A stretch of 64,000 nucleotides of DNA from Lysobacteraceae bacterium (GCA_004143945.1 SEHB01000011.1:20070-84069); one strand, 5' to 3'; positions 1,625 through 29,413 are shown, numbered from the stretch's first letter. Numbers and translations are program-made. Notes: generated by a model not told the origin, from the letters alone.

Positions 1625-2164
1625 TCAGTTCGCCTCGATCACGCCGCACGCGATGCGCGCGCCGGAATTGCCGGCGGGCTGGGAGGTGTAGTCGTCGGGA
1701 TCGGCGTGGACGACGATCGCGCGGCCGATGATGTCGTTCGCGGCACCGAGCGACACGCCGGTGATGCGTGCATCCACCTGCGCGCTTCCGGATGCGTCGG
1801 CGCGTACGTTTGGAACGTCGCCCGCATGATGCGGACCCGACAACGGGTTGCCGTGTGCGCTCGACGTCGGGTTGTAGTGACCGCCCGCGCTGCTCGCATC
1901 GAGCGCGCTGCAGTCGCCCTTCTCGTGAACATGGAAGCCGTGCTCGGCGCCAGGCTTGAGGCCCTGCAGGGTCCCGCTCACGTGCACGCCGTCTGCAGCC
2001 TGGCGCAACTTCAACTCGCCCCGGGCGAGCTGGCCCTGGGTCGATGCGAGTGAAACGTGCGCGGCGCGTGCACCATCACGGGCATCACTAGCGCCATCGC
2101 GCGCGTGGGTACCGGCACAGGCGGAAAGTGCGAGTGCGAGCAGGCTCAGCGGCAACATGCGCAT
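1625..2164 (-). CDS. sodC: Cu/Zn superoxide dismutase, lipoprotein
   Basis: Lipobox LSAC; HGFHVH, GGHYNP, HGNP..HHAGD, HADPDD and GARIACG motifs; GAGGAG RBS. Confidence 0.95.
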   Translation of the reverse strand: MRMLPLSLLALALSACAGTHARDGASDARDGARAAHVSLASTQGQLARGELKLRQAADGVHVSGTLQGLKPGAEHGFHVHEKGDCSALDASSAGGHYNPTSSAHGNPLSGPHHAGDVPNVRADASGSAQVDARITGVSLGAANDIIGRAIVVHADPDDYTSQPAGNSGARIACGVIEAN

Positions 2165-2327
2165 CGGAGTACTCCTCTTTTCTTCGGATGTGGCGAACAG
2201 TGTGGTGCGCGCGGGGCTACCGCGGCTGAACTGGGCCAGCCTGTTCACTCGCGAGCAGGGCAACAGCCTGCAGCATGCCTGCACTGGCGGACGCCTGCAT
2301 CCGCCGCCAAACACGAGGTGGATCCCG

Positions 2328-2585
2328 ATGACCCTGCGACGCGACGAAGTGGAATCCATGCTGGATGAACTCGAGCGCGGGCTGCCGCGCATGATCGAAC
2401 GCTACGAAACGCCGGAGGCGTTCTGGCCGATCTTCGCCGGTTCCGTCGACGTGATCCTCGAGGGATGCGAAGCGAACGACTCCGTCTATGCGCGCGGCCG
2501 CGTCGAACGCCTGCGCGAACGCGCGCTGCAACTCGGCATGGCGGCGCCCGCCGGCGACGATCGATCGGGCGCCACCGCGGGCTGA
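2328..2585 (+). CDS. Small hypothetical protein (85 aa)
   Basis: GAGGTG RBS at 2315-2320, ATG 2328, MTLRRDEVESMLDELERGLP...; divergent from sodC. Confidence 0.7.
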   Translation: MTLRRDEVESMLDELERGLPRMIERYETPEAFWPIFAGSVDVILEGCEANDSVYARGRVERLRERALQLGMAAPAGDDRSGATAG

Positions 2586-2592
2586 CGGGGAG

Positions 2593-2949
2593 TCAGGCGG
2601 CTGCGTCGCGCGCACCTGCAGTGCAGCCGGCGTGGCCGCAGCCGCATCCGGAACCGGTATGGGCGCCGGCCGCAGTACGGCAATGTTCGCTGCACCACTG
2701 CTCGCCCGCAGTCACGCTGCACGCGCACGCGCCGTGTGCGCAGCGCGTCCCACCGCCCGTGTCCGAGTCCGACCTCACGGCGGGGACGAACGGCGACACC
2801 GGATCGCTGGTCGGGAAGGTTTCCTCGAGCGCTTCGTCGAGCGCAGCGCTTTCCTTCGCCTTGCGCGACGCGCGCTCATGCGCGGTTTCTTCCACCGGCG
2901 CGCCCGTCTCGGCGCGATGCGGCGGATCCTTGCGGTCTCTTGTAGTCAT
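2593..2949 (-). CDS. LDEALEETFPTSDP-motif protein fused to a Cys/His-rich metallothionein-like domain
   Basis: 118 aa; GAGG RBS; C-terminal CAHGACAC...WCSEHC...GCGCGHAGC with 8 Cys and 4 His. Confidence 0.7.
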   Translation of the reverse strand: MTTRDRKDPPHRAETGAPVEETAHERASRKAKESAALDEALEETFPTSDPVSPFVPAVRSDSDTGGGTRCAHGACACSVTAGEQWCSEHCRTAAGAHTGSGCGCGHAGCTAGARDAAA

Positions 2950-3075
2950 CGGATGGCTTCCTCGCTGAAATGGGGCTTGCATCTCATTGGAAGACGCCAC
3001 AGCCCAACGCCGACTGACTCGAGCGCTTCCTCGCAAGGTGTCGTTCAGAGCCCGAGTTGCATGCGCCGCGCGCGA

Positions 3076-3636
3076 TCAGCGGTTCTCCGCGGGCAGCCGG
3101 TGTGGTGAGCGGCGCGCCCGCAGCAACTCCTCGACGTAGGGACCCACTGAAAGCAGCGCCACTCCGACTGCGAGCGCAACGCCGTAGGCAGCCGGTGGCG
3201 CCTGCTCGTTCAGCACGGGATCGAACCGCGCAGCCTCGGTCCCGAGACCGAACAGCGCAAGGAACTGCGGCCACTCCGCCGTCGCGACCAGCATGAGGAT
3301 GACCATCGGGCACGCTTCGAGCACGCTGTGGATCATCTGCTCGAGCACCCCGATCCTGCGACTCGACGTCGCGATGCGCAGGTCGAACCACGTCGTCGCT
3401 TCGTGCAAGAGTGCCCCGACGATGAGCACGGCGAACACGAGCGCGTTCGCCTGCAAGTAGATCGCGGCCAGCAGCGGAATGCCCATTTCCGCGAGCAGCA
3501 GCAGGTGCAGGGCCGATTCGGTCGCGCCGCTGGTGCGCTCGATATGGCTGCGCCGGTGGCACAGCCAGTCCGCGAAGCCCGCGAGCAACCACACCGGCAC
3601 GACGACATACAGCAACAGCGAGTACTGGGGCATCAC
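3076..3636 (-). CDS. Conserved integral membrane protein (no GGDEF motif, though the family is often labelled diguanylate cyclase)
   Basis: About 4 hydrophobic segments; W-L-L-A-G-F-A-D-W-L-C-H-R-R, H..E and E...H motifs; start directly follows the upstream stop. Confidence 0.75.
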   Translation of the reverse strand: MMPQYSLLLYVVVPVWLLAGFADWLCHRRSHIERTSGATESALHLLLLAEMGIPLLAAIYLQANALVFAVLIVGALLHEATTWFDLRIATSSRRIGVLEQMIHSVLEACPMVILMLVATAEWPQFLALFGLGTEAARFDPVLNEQAPPAAYGVALAVGVALLSVGPYVEELLRARRSPHRLPAENR

Positions 3637-3637
3637 G

Positions 3638-4108
3638 TCAGGGTCCTCCCGGCTTCGCGACCATCAGGTAGAAGATCGCGAGGAATGCGAGCAGCGCGGG
3701 CACGCCGAGCGCGAACCATGCGAGGAAGCAGCGATGGAACGCGCTCGGAAGCACCGCGCCCTTGCGCGCGGCCTGCACGGCGAGATCGCGCATGCGGATC
3801 TGCAGCCAGACCACGGGCAGCCAGCACGCGACCGCGAGCACGTAGAGCACGATCGACACCTCGAGCCACCAGGCATCGATCGGAAGCCGGGCGATGCGCA
3901 TGAGCCACCATCCCGTCACCGGTTGCAGCACGATGGTGGTCGCGGTGAACAGCCAGTCTGCGCGCACGACCCAGGCGGCGACACGCGCGACGAGGCGCGC
4001 ATCGCGCGAGAGGCTCGCACACAACAGGTAGAACGCCGATCCGATGCCGGTGCCGAACAGGATCGTCGAGGACACGATGTGCAGCCATTTGACCAGCAGG
4101 TAGCTCAT
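3638..4108 (-). CDS. DUF2269-family integral membrane protein
   Basis: YLLVKWLHIVSSTILFGTGIGSAF, ADWLFT, C-terminal FYLMVAKP; ATGA overlap with upstream gene. Confidence 0.85.
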   Translation of the reverse strand: MSYLLVKWLHIVSSTILFGTGIGSAFYLLCASLSRDARLVARVAAWVVRADWLFTATTIVLQPVTGWWLMRIARLPIDAWWLEVSIVLYVLAVACWLPVVWLQIRMRDLAVQAARKGAVLPSAFHRCFLAWFALGVPALLAFLAIFYLMVAKPGGP

Positions 4109-25842: not shown

Positions 25843-27267
25843 ATGACCGACGACCATCCGCTCTACCTCGCGAACAAGCCGACGCGGCGTGCGGACCGGC
25901 TCGATGTCATCGACAAGTTCTCGGGCGAAATCGCGGCGCAGGTCAGCCTCGCGGACGCCCGCACGGTCGACGAGGCGATCGCGGCCGCCGTCGCGGCCGA
26001 GGCACCGATGCGGCGCTTCCCGCCGCATGCGCGGCAGGCGGTGCTCGATCATTGCGTCACGCGCTTCCGCGAACGCTTCGACGAACTCGCGCTCGCGCTC
26101 TGCGTCGAAGCCGGCAAGCCGATCGGGGATGCCGAAGGCGAAGTCACGCGCCTGATCGATACGTTCCGCGTCGCGGCCGAGGAAGCCGTGCGCATCGACG
26201 GCGAGATGCCGAACCTCGACATCTCCGCGCGCGCGGCAGGCTATCGCGGCTTCGTGCAGCGCGTGCCGGTCGGTGCCTGTTCGTTCATCACGCCGTTCAA
26301 CTTCCCGCTCAACCTCGTCGCGCACAAGGTCGCGCCCGCGATCGCGGCCGGTTGCCCGTTCGTGCTGAAGCCGTCGGAGAAGACGCCGCTCGGCGCGCTG
26401 ATCATCGGCGGCATCCTCGCGGAGACCGACTTGCCCGAAGGCGCGTTCTCGATCCTGCCGTGTCGCGTCGAGGACGCGGCGGCGCTGGTGGAGGACGATC
26501 GACTGAAACTGCTTTCCTTCACCGGCGGCCAGGTCGGCTGGAAGCTCAAGGCGCAGGCCGGGCGCAAGAAGGTCGTGCTCGAACTCGGCGGCAACGCGGC
26601 CTGCATCATCGACGCGGACCAGCGCGACCAGCTCGACCACGTGGTCGAACGCCTCGTGTTCGGCGCGTATTACCAGTCGGGCCAGAGCTGCATCAAGGTG
26701 CAGCGCGTGTTCGCGCACGCGTCGCTCTACGAGGACCTGCGCGAACGCTTCGTCGCGGCGACCCGGACATTGAAGGCCGGCGATCCGAAGCAGCGCGACA
26801 CCTTCCTCGGCCCGCTCATCGACGAGGCCTCGGCGAAGCGCCTCGAACGCTGGATCGGCGAAGCCGTCGACGGCGGTGCACGCCTGTTGTGCGGCGGTGG
26901 CCGCGAGGCCAACCGGCTCGAGGCCAGCGTGCTCGAAGATGTGCCGCGCGGCGCGAAGCTCGACGCGGAGGAAGCCTTCGGTCCCGTCACCGTGCTCGCG
27001 CCGTTCACGGCGTTCGACGAGGCGATCGCACGCGTCAACGACTCGAACTATGGCTTGCAGGCCGGCGTGTTCACGCACGACATCCGCCACGCGATGCGCG
27101 CATGGGACGAACTCGAGGTCGGCGGCGTGATCGTCAACGACATCCCGAGCTTCCGCGTCGACAACATGCCGTATGGCGGCGTCAAGCATTCGGGCTTCGG
27201 CCGCGAAGGCATCCGTTACGCGATCGCGGACATGACCGAACAGCGCCTGCTGGTGCTGCGCGGCTGA
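25843..27267 (+). CDS. Aldehyde dehydrogenase family protein
   Basis: ITPFNFP, KPSEKT, SFTGG, LELGGN, QSCI (catalytic Cys), EEAFGP, YGGVKHSGFGREG. Confidence 0.93.
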   Translation: MTDDHPLYLANKPTRRADRLDVIDKFSGEIAAQVSLADARTVDEAIAAAVAAEAPMRRFPPHARQAVLDHCVTRFRERFDELALALCVEAGKPIGDAEGEVTRLIDTFRVAAEEAVRIDGEMPNLDISARAAGYRGFVQRVPVGACSFITPFNFPLNLVAHKVAPAIAAGCPFVLKPSEKTPLGALIIGGILAETDLPEGAFSILPCRVEDAAALVEDDRLKLLSFTGGQVGWKLKAQAGRKKVVLELGGNAACIIDADQRDQLDHVVERLVFGAYYQSGQSCIKVQRVFAHASLYEDLRERFVAATRTLKAGDPKQRDTFLGPLIDEASAKRLERWIGEAVDGGARLLCGGGREANRLEASVLEDVPRGAKLDAEEAFGPVTVLAPFTAFDEAIARVNDSNYGLQAGVFTHDIRHAMRAWDELEVGGVIVNDIPSFRVDNMPYGGVKHSGFGREGIRYAIADMTEQRLLVLRG

Positions 27268-27270
27268 ACC

Positions 27271-27972
27271 TCAGGTTCGCGGCGCGCGCCACGCCGCGCG
27301 GGGACGGCCGCGCGGCCTCGCCGCCGCGACGCGCGCGGAGCGCAATTCGACCTCACGCCGGAATTCGCGTGTGCCCCACGCCCTCTGCTGGCGCGTGTGC
27401 AGCCGCAGCTCGAACGTCTCGCGCGGATCCGCACCCGCATCGACATAGCGCCGCCAGGCATCGGCGCGGGCCTGCGCGTCGGCGCCGAGGCGCGCATGCT
27501 CCGGATGCAGGATCACGCAGGCATCCTCGGTGCCGCAGCCGCTGCAGGCATGGCTGCTCCAGCGCCACTCGCGCGCGCTCGCCACGAGGCCTGCGCGCAC
27601 CGGATGCGCCTCGATGTGGCGGGAGCACGCGAGCACGTGCGGTCCGTCGGCGATCAGCGCCGCGACATAGCGTCGCCACAGCGGGCCGCTGGCGCGATGG
27701 CGCCGGTTGAAGTGGGCGACGTAGCGCCGGCCCAGGGCCTGCATCATGCGCGGCACGCCGGTTTCGTCGCGCGGCGTCGCGAGCAAGTGCACGTGGTCCG
27801 GCATCAGCACGTAGGCATGGATCGCGCAGCGGAATCGCAGCGCCGCGGCACCCAGTTCGCGCAGGTACGCGCGGCGGTCATCGTCGTCGCGGAAGCAGGC
27901 GCTCCCGATGCGGGCGCGCTGCACCACGTGCTGCGCGATGCCCGCAAGATTGTATCGGCCCTGCCGCGCCAC
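27271..27972 (-). mobile_element. REP-associated tyrosine transposase (RAYT, Y1 HUH) homolog, apparently catalytically degenerate
   Basis: H.VQR, AYVLMPDHVHLL (HUH), PVRAGLV, WRWSS, RPRGRP tail; expected YIxxNP reads HIEAHP. Confidence 0.85.
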
Positions 27973-27982
27973 GCAGCTGCCT

Positions 27983-28384
27983 TCAGCGCGGCGCGGTCGC
28001 GACCGGCGCAGGCGCGAGCCAGGCGCGATACGCGGCCTCGTCGTAGCCGACGATGCGCCAGCGCGGCGTCACCAGCACCGGCACGCCACCGACGTCGAGT
28101 TGCGCGTACAACGCACGCGCGCGCGCCGACGCATCGATGTCGAGCTCGGCGTAGTCGACGCCGAGCGTCGCGAGCAGCACGCGCGCCTTCTCGCAGAAGC
28201 CGCAGGTCCGGGTCGCGAACAACACGACCGGGCGGCTCGTCGTCGCCACGATCGGGCCGTAGTCCCCGGCGAGCGCCGCCGGCGCGGGCCGCAACTGGCG
28301 CACTGCAAGCGTGCCGAACCAGCCGATCGCCGCAGCGGCCGTGGCCAGCGCCATCGCGGGCAGGATGCGCCGAAGAAATCGCAT
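27983..28384 (-). CDS. Membrane-anchored glutaredoxin (NrdH-like)
   Basis: N-terminal hydrophobic anchor, TCGFC CxxC, GGVPVL, IVGYD; GGGAG RBS. Confidence 0.85.
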   Translation of the reverse strand: MRFLRRILPAMALATAAAAIGWFGTLAVRQLRPAPAALAGDYGPIVATTSRPVVLFATRTCGFCEKARVLLATLGVDYAELDIDASARARALYAQLDVGGVPVLVTPRWRIVGYDEAAYRAWLAPAPVATAPR

Positions 28385-28396
28385 GTCGAACTCCCG

Positions 28397-28426
28397 GTCC
28401 GCGGCGGCCTCCATGCCACCGCGGAC
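28397..28426. other. Stem-loop between peptide gene and glutaredoxin RBS
   Basis: gtccgcggcggc-ctccat-gccaccgcggac, 12 bp stem with one wobble or mismatch. Confidence 0.55.
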
Positions 28427-28470
28427 GCACCGTGCGGATCCCTCGCCGTCCGTGGCGCGGGCCGCTTCGC

Positions 28471-28674
28471 TCAGAGGCCGTAGATCCAGCAGCAGATGCT
28501 GCTGCCGAGCCAGTCGAGGCAAGAGAGGTAGCTGCCCGTGTCGGCCGGATCGATCATGCACACGCCACCGCCACCGCCGCCGCCGGGCGGCAGCGCCCAT
28601 GCGGAAGCGCTGGCGATTCCGAGCACGAGAGCGGAAAGGAGGACGCGCGCGCGTCCGTTGCGAGACTTGTTCAT
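28471..28674 (-). CDS. Small secreted Cys-rich peptide (67 aa precursor)
   Basis: GGAG RBS; signal peptide MNKSRNGRARVLLSALVLGIASASAWA; mature LPPGGGGGGGVCMIDPADTGSYLSCLDWLGSSICCWIYGL. Confidence 0.7.
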   Translation of the reverse strand: MNKSRNGRARVLLSALVLGIASASAWALPPGGGGGGGVCMIDPADTGSYLSCLDWLGSSICCWIYGL

Positions 28675-28864
28675 CGTCGAATGCTCCATTCAAGCGGGCG
28701 CGCAGGATCGCGACCCATGCTGAAGAACGCCGGTGCGCGCCCGCCTGCGTCAAAAAGGGGACAGGTTGCGCGGGCCGCTGCGCGGCGCGTCGCCGAGACG
28801 GCGATGGAAGTGGCACGCGCGATGCTGCAGACTCCGCGCCGATCCATCACCAAGGGGAACACGC

Positions 28865-29389
28865 ATGAATCCACGCATCGCCGCGGTCCTTGCCACGGGT
28901 TTGTTCGTCGCTGGCGTCGGCGTCGGCTATGCCGCGCAGAAGCTCTCGCCCGCGCTCTACCACGGCAAGGCTGCGCCGGAAGCCGCGCGCGCCCTGCTCG
29001 AGGCCGCGCTCGAGCAGGCCGGCGACGAAGGCAGCTGGGAGCGGATCGGCATCGCGCGCATCCACTACCTCGCCGGCCACAAGACCGAGGCCCAGGCGAT
29101 CTTCGACTCGCTGCTGGCCGGCGACGCCGACGACAGCGATGTGTTCCGAATCGCGCGCGTGTACCGCGAAGCCGGTGAATGGGCGAAGGCGAAACCGCTG
29201 TTCGACCGCTACCTGGCGAGCAATCCGAAGGACGAAAAGGCACTCGCAGAAGTCGGCGCGTTCTACCTGCTGAACGGTGATCGCGAAGGCGCAGAGCGGC
29301 TGTTCGACCGCTCGTTTGCGGTCACGTCCGAGGTGTGGGCGACGATCGCCGCGGCGGGCGCCTACCTCGGCGTCGCGCCGCAGGAGTAG
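28865..29389 (+). CDS. Exported tetratricopeptide-repeat protein
   Basis: Signal-like N-terminus; helical repeats ARIHYLAG..EA, ARVYREAGEWAKA, GAFYLLNGDREGA. Confidence 0.75.
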   Translation: MNPRIAAVLATGLFVAGVGVGYAAQKLSPALYHGKAAPEAARALLEAALEQAGDEGSWERIGIARIHYLAGHKTEAQAIFDSLLAGDADDSDVFRIARVYREAGEWAKAKPLFDRYLASNPKDEKALAEVGAFYLLNGDREGAERLFDRSFAVTSEVWATIAAAGAYLGVAPQE

Positions 29390-29413
29390 GCGGCGCGCGA
29401 CGGCGCGATCCCA

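Follow-up and report, generated by a model that had tools for sequence, protein, structure and literature searches.

A conserved gene pair for a predicted four-cysteine peptide and a predicted membrane-anchored glutaredoxin in Dokdonella

The DNA analysed here is a GC-rich stretch of 64 kb from a Lysobacteraceae bacterium (GCA_004143945.1, SEHB01000011.1:20070-84069), hereafter called the window, in which positions are counted from the first letter. The system in question is a pair of genes on its minus strand, one encoding a small cysteine-containing peptide and the other a glutaredoxin-fold protein with an N-terminal transmembrane (TM) helix, referred to below as TM-glutaredoxin (gene, grx). 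Reading from 28880 to 27980 on the minus strand, the locus comprises a promoter-like motif, a stem-loop in the 5' untranslated region (5'UTR), a GGAG Shine-Dalgarno (SD) sequence, a 67-codon open reading frame (ORF), an 86-nt spacer, and a 133-codon ORF (Table 1). The original prediction for this locus had described a 67-amino-acid (aa) secreted precursor with a ribosome-binding site, a 12-bp stem-loop, and a TM-anchored CGFC glutaredoxin on the same strand; the ORF with its SD sequence, the stem-loop (with a loop of 6 nt), and the anchored glutaredoxin were all recovered as described.

The peptide gene and its constant neighbour

The first ORF (28471-28674, minus strand) encodes a 67-aa product that starts with MNKS and consists of MNKSRNGRARVLLSALVLGIASASAWA followed by LPPGGGGGGGVCMIDPADTGSYLSCLDWLGSSICCWIYGL, with the predicted cleavage point between the two. 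An in-frame ATG five codons upstream (28689) has no SD sequence and is missing from other clades, in which the alignment has AAGGAG at the SD position of the peptide gene. By inspection, the N-terminus has the layout of a signal peptide, with K3, R5, R8, and R10 in the n-region, a hydrophobic core (VLLSALVLGIA), and the site ASAWA/LPP, which places Ala at -3 and -1. The motif AWA/[L/V/M]PP, read in the same way, is kept in nearly all members of the peptide family, and W26, A27, P29, and P30 are invariant. In a Gram-negative cell, a putative Sec-type signal of this kind implies export as far as the periplasm, and to that extent the predicted secretion stands. The 40-aa mature part matches exactly the pattern that had been predicted for it, LPP-G7-VC-x12-C-x8-CC-WIYGL, and it is hydrophobic and acidic, with three Asp and zero Lys or Arg. 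In an AlphaFold2 (AF2) model, the signal forms a helix (residues 5-25), and a disordered Gly linker leads into the core, which, with moderate confidence, forms two helices (residues 43-55 and 58-65). The core probably folds as a two-helix hairpin in which the four Cys form two disulfides.

Conservation of Cys spacing, a check proposed together with the prediction, was found in full. Measured from VC to the C-terminus, the core has 30 aa and four invariant Cys in 21/21 distinct DNA variants, and its pairwise dN/dS is 0.10-0.65, mostly 0.1-0.4 where synonymous divergence is substantial. The sole length changes lie in the Gly tract between LPP and the core, which has 0 to 7 residues among relatives, and these changes involve whole codons and are always in frame. 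Because the core length is fixed, the Cys are invariant, indels occur only in frame, and dN/dS is mostly 0.1-0.4, the small ORF is, on the evidence of the alignment, a real gene under purifying selection. The Gly tract (28564-28584, minus strand) varies via whole GGC/GGT codon repeats, and one metatranscriptome contig has a 6-nt deletion there.

The peptide family is narrow. A word-indexed search of 5.8 billion proteins returned four relatives, and a full search of 1.84 billion cluster representatives with a hidden Markov model (HMM) returned just two clusters at 50% identity. A scan of one genome per species gave six loci, five labelled Dokdonella and one from an unclassified proteobacterial metagenome-assembled genome (MAG); every named source of the peptide is Dokdonella. 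Cultured D. fugitiva strains carry the gene pair, and gene callers predict the peptide, which appears in the NCBI and UniProt entries of D. fugitiva only as a hypothetical or uncharacterised protein. Searches of Pfam, NCBIfam, and plasmids (tblastn) and a PDB profile search gave zero matches, and nothing relevant was found in the literature on Dokdonella bacteriocins or on a peptide/glutaredoxin pairing. By these searches, the peptide is undescribed, as had been supposed.

In all loci for which both flanks are sequenced, the TM-glutaredoxin gene lies directly downstream of the peptide gene, at a distance of 47-119 nt; this count covers the window and loci L001-L036, which represent approximately 25 distinct gene pairs. 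The association is consistent in both directions, as loci found via the peptide all had the glutaredoxin, and loci found via the glutaredoxin (by protein search and metagenome scan) all had the peptide. A glutaredoxin without the peptide in relatives, the case named in the original prediction as speaking against a functional pair, was therefore not encountered, and the expected synteny was seen at every examinable locus, in at least five genomic contexts. The pair is accompanied by TPR and Y1_Tnp genes in the window type; by AstE-like, DUF429, Gcw_chp, and KdpFA genes in D. fugitiva; by PhyH, a Kelch protein, and a 263-aa protein in a third context; by MAPEG and PhyH in a fourth; and by Cu amine oxidase and radical SAM genes in the most divergent locus (L009). 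No transporter and no conserved third gene was found in any of these contexts, which lack the ABC/C39 exporter plus immunity gene by which bacteriocin and microcin operons are recognised. The TM-glutaredoxin family has a sharp boundary: 16 homologues (47-92% identity) match at 112 bits or more, with none from there down to the threshold, and all those with an organism name are Dokdonella. Because the neighbours differ across contexts, the pair is constant, and both families are equally narrow, the peptide and TM-glutaredoxin genes are, by comparison of these loci, a two-gene module that has moved as a unit. A Dokdonella-specific (Rhodanobacteraceae) operon is the best explanation of the pair.

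It could be argued that the adjacency is meaningless and that the glutaredoxin is a general envelope or cytoplasmic enzyme beside a lineage-specific small ORF in a single genus. All members come from one genus-level lineage, in which shared ancestry could hold neighbours together, and the periplasmic topology of the glutaredoxin is a prediction. However, the pair has moved jointly into at least five neighbourhoods with nothing else linked to it; the RNA structures of the spacer, the promoter-like motif, and the 5'UTR are conserved as a unit; and the two families have equally narrow distributions. We consider a chance neighbourhood very improbable.

Table 1. Positions and characteristics of the features of the peptide-glutaredoxin locus
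Feature	Position	Strand	Sequence or composition	Remarks
Promoter-like motif	28724-28752	minus	TGACGC-N17-CGTTCT	Position and spacing constant in all clades (alignment)
5'UTR stem-loop	28696-28716	minus	GGGTCGCG-ATCCTG-CGCGCCC	Predicted in nearly all family members
SD sequence of the peptide gene	28683-28686	minus	GGAG	9 nt ahead of ATG 28674
Signal peptide (predicted)	28594-28674	minus	27 aa, MNKSRNGRARVLLSALVLGIASASAWA	n-, h-, and c-regions and AxA, by inspection
Mature peptide (predicted)	28471-28593	minus	40 aa and stop: LPP-Gly7 linker, 30-aa core VCMIDPADTGSYLSCLDWLGSSICCWIYGL	Fixed core length, invariant Cys
Intercistronic hairpin 1	28440-28461	minus	CCCGCGCC-ACGGAC-GGCGAGGG	Covarying stem, conserved loop
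Intercistronic hairpin 2	28397-28426	minus	GTCCGCGGTGGC-ATGGAG-GCCGCCGCGGAC	12-bp stem, 6-nt loop
SD sequence of the glutaredoxin gene	28391-28395	minus	GGGAG	6 nt ahead of ATG 28384; 1 nt past hairpin 2; includes the third GGA
Membrane-anchored glutaredoxin-fold protein (predicted)	27983-28384	minus	133 aa	TM helix, residues 7-28 (28301-28366); CGFC, residues 61-64 (28193-28204)

The glutaredoxin-fold protein and its predicted orientation

The second gene of the pair encodes a protein with a glutaredoxin fold. Residues 53-105 match PF00462 (Glutaredoxin) with 41.8 bits against a gathering cut-off of 22.9, and the relatives score 45-50 bits on the same model. The nearest solved structure is that of E. 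coli Grx3 (1fov, E=1.6e-5), with approximately 30% identity across 65 residues. The protein has a single hydrophobic helix, which the AF2 model extends to residues 3-31, and a short linker joins it to a minimal glutaredoxin domain of approximately 75 aa that carries the CGFC motif. In particular, C61 and C64 as well as V101-P102 (the cis-Pro) are invariant in the family and align with CPYC and TVP of Grx3. Among the CxxC variants of the family (CGFC, CGYC, CRYC, CPYC, and CPHC), CPYC is the commonest; [G/S]VP is kept, as is G[F/Y]DE in place of GGYDD, the glutathione-site motif of Grx3. At the level of named subfamilies (Grx3, GrxA, NrdH, YruB, and mycoredoxin), TM-glutaredoxin falls below every NCBIfam cut-off: the best score, on the YruB-family model, is 41.8 vs 88.55; the scores for Grx3 and NrdH are 28.6 vs 90 and 13.9 vs 85.75, respectively. 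Two further details of the family concern the helix and the linker. At residue 20 (28325-28327), within the TM helix, most members have Cys (AAACGWFG), which is replaced by Ile, Thr, or Leu in the window clade; the linker motif GD[Y/F] is invariant.

In 33 of 37 sequences, the net charge is more positive on the N-terminal side of the helix than on its C-terminal side. The positive-inside rule, the sole basis for assigning a topology here, would place the N-terminus in the cytoplasm and the catalytic domain in the periplasm. Exported glutaredoxin (Grx3) has an engineered precedent in E. coli, in which, according to the account of Eser et al. (2009) given in PMC10344953 (see also PMC12453122), it can form periplasmic disulfides with glutathione. 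Because of this precedent and because the VP and G[F/Y]DE motifs are retained, it is plausible that TM-glutaredoxin acts as a glutathione-coupled periplasmic oxidase or isomerase.

The opposite direction of catalysis must also be weighed. The pair may work reductively, with TM-glutaredoxin as an immunity protein that protects the producer at its own membrane by reducing, and so disarming, a disulfide peptide, or with the peptide, rich in thiols, carrying or buffering metals or oxidants in the periplasm while the glutaredoxin keeps it reduced by means of glutathione. Glutaredoxins are typically reductases, and the motif that is commonest in the family is the classic CPYC. Moreover, L010 has a Metal_resist (PF13801) gene close to the pair, L022 and L029 have KdpFA in its vicinity, and many members of the peptide family have His-Val-Cys-Met ahead of the core. 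These neighbours carry little weight, however, since neighbouring genes vary between contexts; the His is missing in the window clade; the module contains no DsbD- or CcdA-like partner that could supply reductant; and no known metal-binding family was matched in Pfam or NCBIfam. A reductive role of the pair seems to us decidedly unlikely.

Hairpins between the genes and the region upstream

The spacer between the genes was compared in an alignment of 13 lineages, the sequences of which fall into a few clades. The loop of hairpin 1 reads A[C/G]GGA[C/G], with A, G, G, and A invariant in 13 sequences, and its stems differ by clade (CCGCGCC/GGCGxGG vs GGGCGAC/GTCGCCC); 88.5% of the alignment cells are paired compared with 36-56% in slid controls, and three pairs show compensatory changes. 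Hairpin 2 has GGA in its loop in 15/15 aligned sequences (the loops being, e.g., ATGGAG, AAGGAG, and ACGGAC), its stems also differ by clade (GGCGGC/GCCGCC, GGCCGCG/CGTGGCC, and GACCGCT/GGCGGTC), and 89.7% of the cells are paired compared with 22-64% in slid controls, with compensatory changes in five pairs. The GGA motifs of the two hairpins are 35-48 nt apart, and a third GGA, in the SD sequence of the glutaredoxin gene, follows approximately 20 nt on. Both strands of the window hold 14 ANGGAN hexaloop hairpins with a stem of at least 4 bp, two of which are hairpins 1 and 2; hairpin 2 is the sole one in 64 kb with a stem of at least 6 bp. Its sequence is found once in 64 kb when up to three mismatches are allowed, and none is expected by chance.

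Two familiar explanations of such a structure were rejected. A REP element linked to the adjacent Y1_Tnp/RAYT-like gene is contradicted by the single copy of hairpin 2 in 64 kb. An intrinsic (Rho-independent) terminator was dismissed since a scan of 27200-29400 found no terminator-like site and hairpin 2 lacks a U-tract, the next bases being CGGGAGUUCGAC. An Rfam search at E<=1 gave only two chance-level matches, located elsewhere, and no known RNA family. The original prediction had regarded the stem-loop as a hairpin of the kind that keeps precursor mRNA in excess over its maturation enzyme; a simple terminator-like attenuator of this sort is not supported, as the U-tract is missing and the stem-loop has proved to be one of two conserved GGA-loop hairpins next to a GGA-containing SD sequence.

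In targets of CsrA/RsmA/RsmE, ANGGAN hexaloop hairpins occur at several sites and one GGA lies over the SD sequence, and the CsrA ligands obtained by SELEX, in which ligands are evolved systematically through exponential enrichment, mostly have stems of up to 4 bp (PMC7652899). Xanthomonas, a related genus, has RsmA as an established regulator (PMC3937308), and in the ColE7 operon, which encodes a bacteriocin, CsrA acts as a repressor of cel, the distal gene (PMC2896534). The layout of CsrA/RsmA targets, i.e., GGA in ANGGAN hexaloops at two or more sites, one of them at the SD sequence, is present in the spacer and is kept in 12 of the 13 lineages. As in the glgC leader, hcnA, and ColE7 cel mRNAs, the loops are of the ANGGAN type, most of them reading CA-N-GGA-N-G with the closing pair, and the SD sequence contains GGA. 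The candidate sites in Dokdonella differ in lying between two cistrons and not in a 5' leader, and their stems are longer and more GC-rich than those of typical SELEX ligands. The pattern points to the two hairpins as candidate CsrA/RsmA sites that control translation of the glutaredoxin, or else as elements that serve mRNA stabilisation.

The second of these options can be put as an explanation in its own right, which is also the idea of the original prediction: the hairpins would need no CsrA and would work purely through the RNA. As a partial transcription stop or a barrier to 3'-exonucleases, hairpin 2 would leave a stable peptide-only mRNA that exceeds the read-through peptide-grx mRNA, and GGA would be incidental or serve another factor. 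The very stable GC stem (9-12 bp in the window clade) lies directly after the peptide gene, and L009 retains a strong hairpin that has no GGA loop. RNA data are of the same tenor: in close relatives, the peptide gene, but not grx, is covered by a contig from a soil metatranscriptome (X29, 28527-28699) and by one from a sediment metatranscriptome (X30, 28631-28776), and no comparable grx contig was found. On the other hand, there is neither a U-tract nor a terminator-like site in the scan, and stability alone leaves the invariant GGA and the 5' A of two loops, conserved amid changing stems, unexplained; the RNA evidence, moreover, comes from a handful of contigs of low depth, and expression is poorly reflected by the depth of contigs. 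Those contigs weakly support transcription of the peptide gene and a higher level of peptide RNA than of grx RNA. We regard an explanation at the RNA level without CsrA as a lesser, though appreciable, possibility. Protection of the 3' end or a partial stop by hairpin 2, which remains a live rival, could also coexist with control by CsrA.

On the 5' side, approximately 90 nt ahead of the peptide start are conserved although the upstream genes differ, and this segment is therefore the 5' edge of the module. It contains the promoter-like motif, which across clades reads TG[A/T]C[G/T]C-N17-CGTTCT and the window version of which is single in the window, and the 5'UTR stem-loop, the stems of which differ by clade (e.g., GGGCCGC...GCGGTCCC). 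A promoter scan found no sigma-70 consensus at 28724-28752. The CGT-containing -10 element presumably resembles that of promoters of extracytoplasmic function (ECF) sigma factors, and the motif may be a promoter of the ECF-sigma type.

Proposed function and comparison with known systems

The reading that we favour, and to which we attach modest confidence, is that the peptide is exported via Sec, that a dedicated glutaredoxin facing the periplasm acts on its two disulfides, and that translation of the glutaredoxin is set post-transcriptionally. The first gene would yield a precursor that is cut by signal peptidase I after AWA, and cleavage would release an acidic, hydrophobic peptide of 33-40 aa with a Pro-Pro-(Gly)n tail followed by the 30-residue core. 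The glutaredoxin would be anchored in the inner membrane by its one N-terminal helix, with the catalytic domain in the periplasm, where it would serve as the dedicated thiol-disulfide enzyme of the peptide, most likely as an oxidase or isomerase. Recycling by periplasmic glutathione is plausible because the TVP-like and G[F/Y]DE motifs of the glutaredoxin type are retained. CsrA/RsmA bound at the two ANGGAN-type hairpins and the GGA-containing SD sequence would gate translation of the glutaredoxin apart from that of the peptide, and the very stable stem of hairpin 2 may also shield the 3' end of a peptide-only transcript. As to the role of the peptide, a bacteriocin-like or signalling peptide is our best guess, held with low confidence.

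Several observations weigh against this reading. The charge margin behind the predicted topology is small (mean K+R 2.2 vs 1.7), an invariant Arg directly follows the helix, and the AF2 model of the glutaredoxin is weak (pLDDT 54). The model of the peptide is also weak (pLDDT 64 overall and approximately 72 in the core), and a Foldseek search with it gave one meaningless match and nothing else. The mature peptide is anionic, unlike most bacteriocins. At the RNA level, hairpin 2, with its long GC stem in the window clade, far exceeds typical CsrA ligands in stability, L009 has a single GC hairpin in place of the two, and the small number of clades means that few independent events lie behind the compensatory changes. 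The peptide-only contigs have a low depth (2.5-6), and two runs of uncertain type ('RNA?'), which may contain DNA, cover both genes evenly. Three metatranscriptomes of the window's own sample set contained no peptide or grx contig, a result that is uninformative rather than negative.

The closest parallels are found in operons for disulfide-containing bacteriocins, in which PedC is the putative dedicated thiol-disulfide oxidoreductase for pediocin (PMC4919988). As with pediocin PA-1 and PedC, a small Cys peptide, in Dokdonella predicted to be exported, is encoded beside its own membrane-associated CxxC protein of the thioredoxin superfamily. Sublancin with BdbB and thermophilin 9 with BlpG are further disulfide bacteriocins with a dedicated oxidoreductase. 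The Gram-positive operons, however, involve double-glycine leaders, ABC exporters (or Sec), immunity genes, and thioredoxin- or DsbA-like enzymes, whereas the Dokdonella pair has a Gram-negative host and a PF00462 glutaredoxin and has no transporter, immunity gene, or sequence similarity to pediocin-type operons. Class IIa microcins (MccV and MccL) come from Gram-negative bacteria and are Gly-rich, hydrophobic peptides, many of them anionic, that contain one or two disulfides; they also have double-glycine leaders, an exporter of the ABC type with a C39 peptidase, immunity genes, and a size of 75-90 aa. The Dokdonella peptide shares their Gly-rich, hydrophobic, and anionic nature but neither the leader, exporter, immunity, and size features nor any sequence similarity. 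A RiPP (ribosomally synthesised and post-translationally modified peptide) with modifications beyond disulfides was rejected, as the loci have no modifying enzyme in common; a radical SAM gene of the B12-binding type occurs in L009 only and on the opposite strand.

On the side of the enzyme, TM-glutaredoxin is like E. coli Grx3 (GrxC) in its fold, its CxxC motif (CPYC in most members), the cis-Pro VP, and G-[F/Y]-D-E for GGYDD. It is unlike Grx3, which is soluble and cytoplasmic, in having an N-terminal membrane helix and the conserved GD[Y/F] linker. CcmG/DsbE, TlpA, ResA, and MauD have an N-terminal anchor and a periplasmic CxxC domain, and they act on one or a few substrates; methylamine dehydrogenase, for example, depends on MauD for its small subunit, which is Cys-rich. 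The likeness to these thioredoxin-fold enzymes lies in the anchor, the predicted periplasmic CxxC domain, and the proposed dedicated substrate. Enzymes of the CcmG/TlpA type, in contrast, have larger folds of the TlpA/AhpC-TSA type and are fed by DsbD/CcdA, whereas the Dokdonella protein has a minimal glutaredoxin domain and no such partner in the module. The module thus resembles dedicated peptide/oxidoreductase pairs and anchored periplasmic thioredoxin-fold enzymes, yet is not a member of those families, because the glutaredoxin fails to reach the cut-off of any named subfamily, the module lacks an exporter, an immunity gene, and a modifying enzyme, and the peptide has no known relatives.

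If the favoured reading is true, the glutaredoxin would be a natural periplasmic one, a type so far known mainly from engineered E. coli, and would bear on the debated role of periplasmic glutathione. The peptide would represent a new, very small disulfide peptide family that has its own folding enzyme but lacks both exporter and immunity gene, and its host is a Gram-negative genus often met in soil, compost, and wastewater; the spacer would provide compact CsrA-type control between two cistrons that uncouples substrate from enzyme. Of most interest are the glutaredoxin, which would seem to be periplasmic by nature, and the CsrA-like hairpins between the two cistrons. If the reading is wrong, the pair is an ordinary lineage-specific hypothetical gene pair. 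A bolder proposal joins all of these elements: a natural exported, tethered glutaredoxin that, with periplasmic glutathione, carries out oxidative folding of one genus-specific, disulfide-stapled helical-hairpin peptide, the peptide constituting a new Sec-dependent class of Gram-negative bacteriocins or signals and the enzyme level being gated by RsmA/CsrA via two intercistronic ANGGAN hairpins. In that complete form, the proposal is speculative and rather unlikely to hold.

The surroundings of the pair differ between clades. In the window, an IS200-like Y1 transposase/RAYT-like gene (233 aa, 27271-27972, minus strand; PF01797, 32 bits; NCBIfam REP_Tyr_transpos, 65 vs a cut-off of 80) starts 10 nt past the grx stop, and the peptide-grx-Y1_Tnp trio occurs only in the window-type, L010, and L015 clades. 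A gene for a 174-aa TPR protein with an N-terminal hydrophobic anchor (28865-29389, plus strand) is transcribed divergently from the pair; a metatranscriptome from the window's own study (X23) covers it at 100% identity with a depth of 12-21. The TPR and Y1_Tnp genes were rejected as parts of the module, being retained in window-type clades alone. Long opposite-strand ORFs over the locus (e.g., 593 aa, 27397-29178, plus strand) are spurious and expected in GC-rich DNA; they are not genes, yet could mislead automatic annotation. In L009, the B12-binding radical SAM gene, a 71-aa ORF, and the copper amine oxidase gene (2085-3993) lie just upstream on the other strand, and no other locus has these. 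One clade has, beside the pair, a gene for a conserved protein of 263-274 aa (L026 2857-3648 and L031 650-1474) that is without a family assignment, has an N-terminal hydrophobic stretch, and is probably secreted, and in L026-L028, a basic 129-aa protein with an N-terminal hydrophobic segment (L026 4591-4980) is encoded downstream of the pair.

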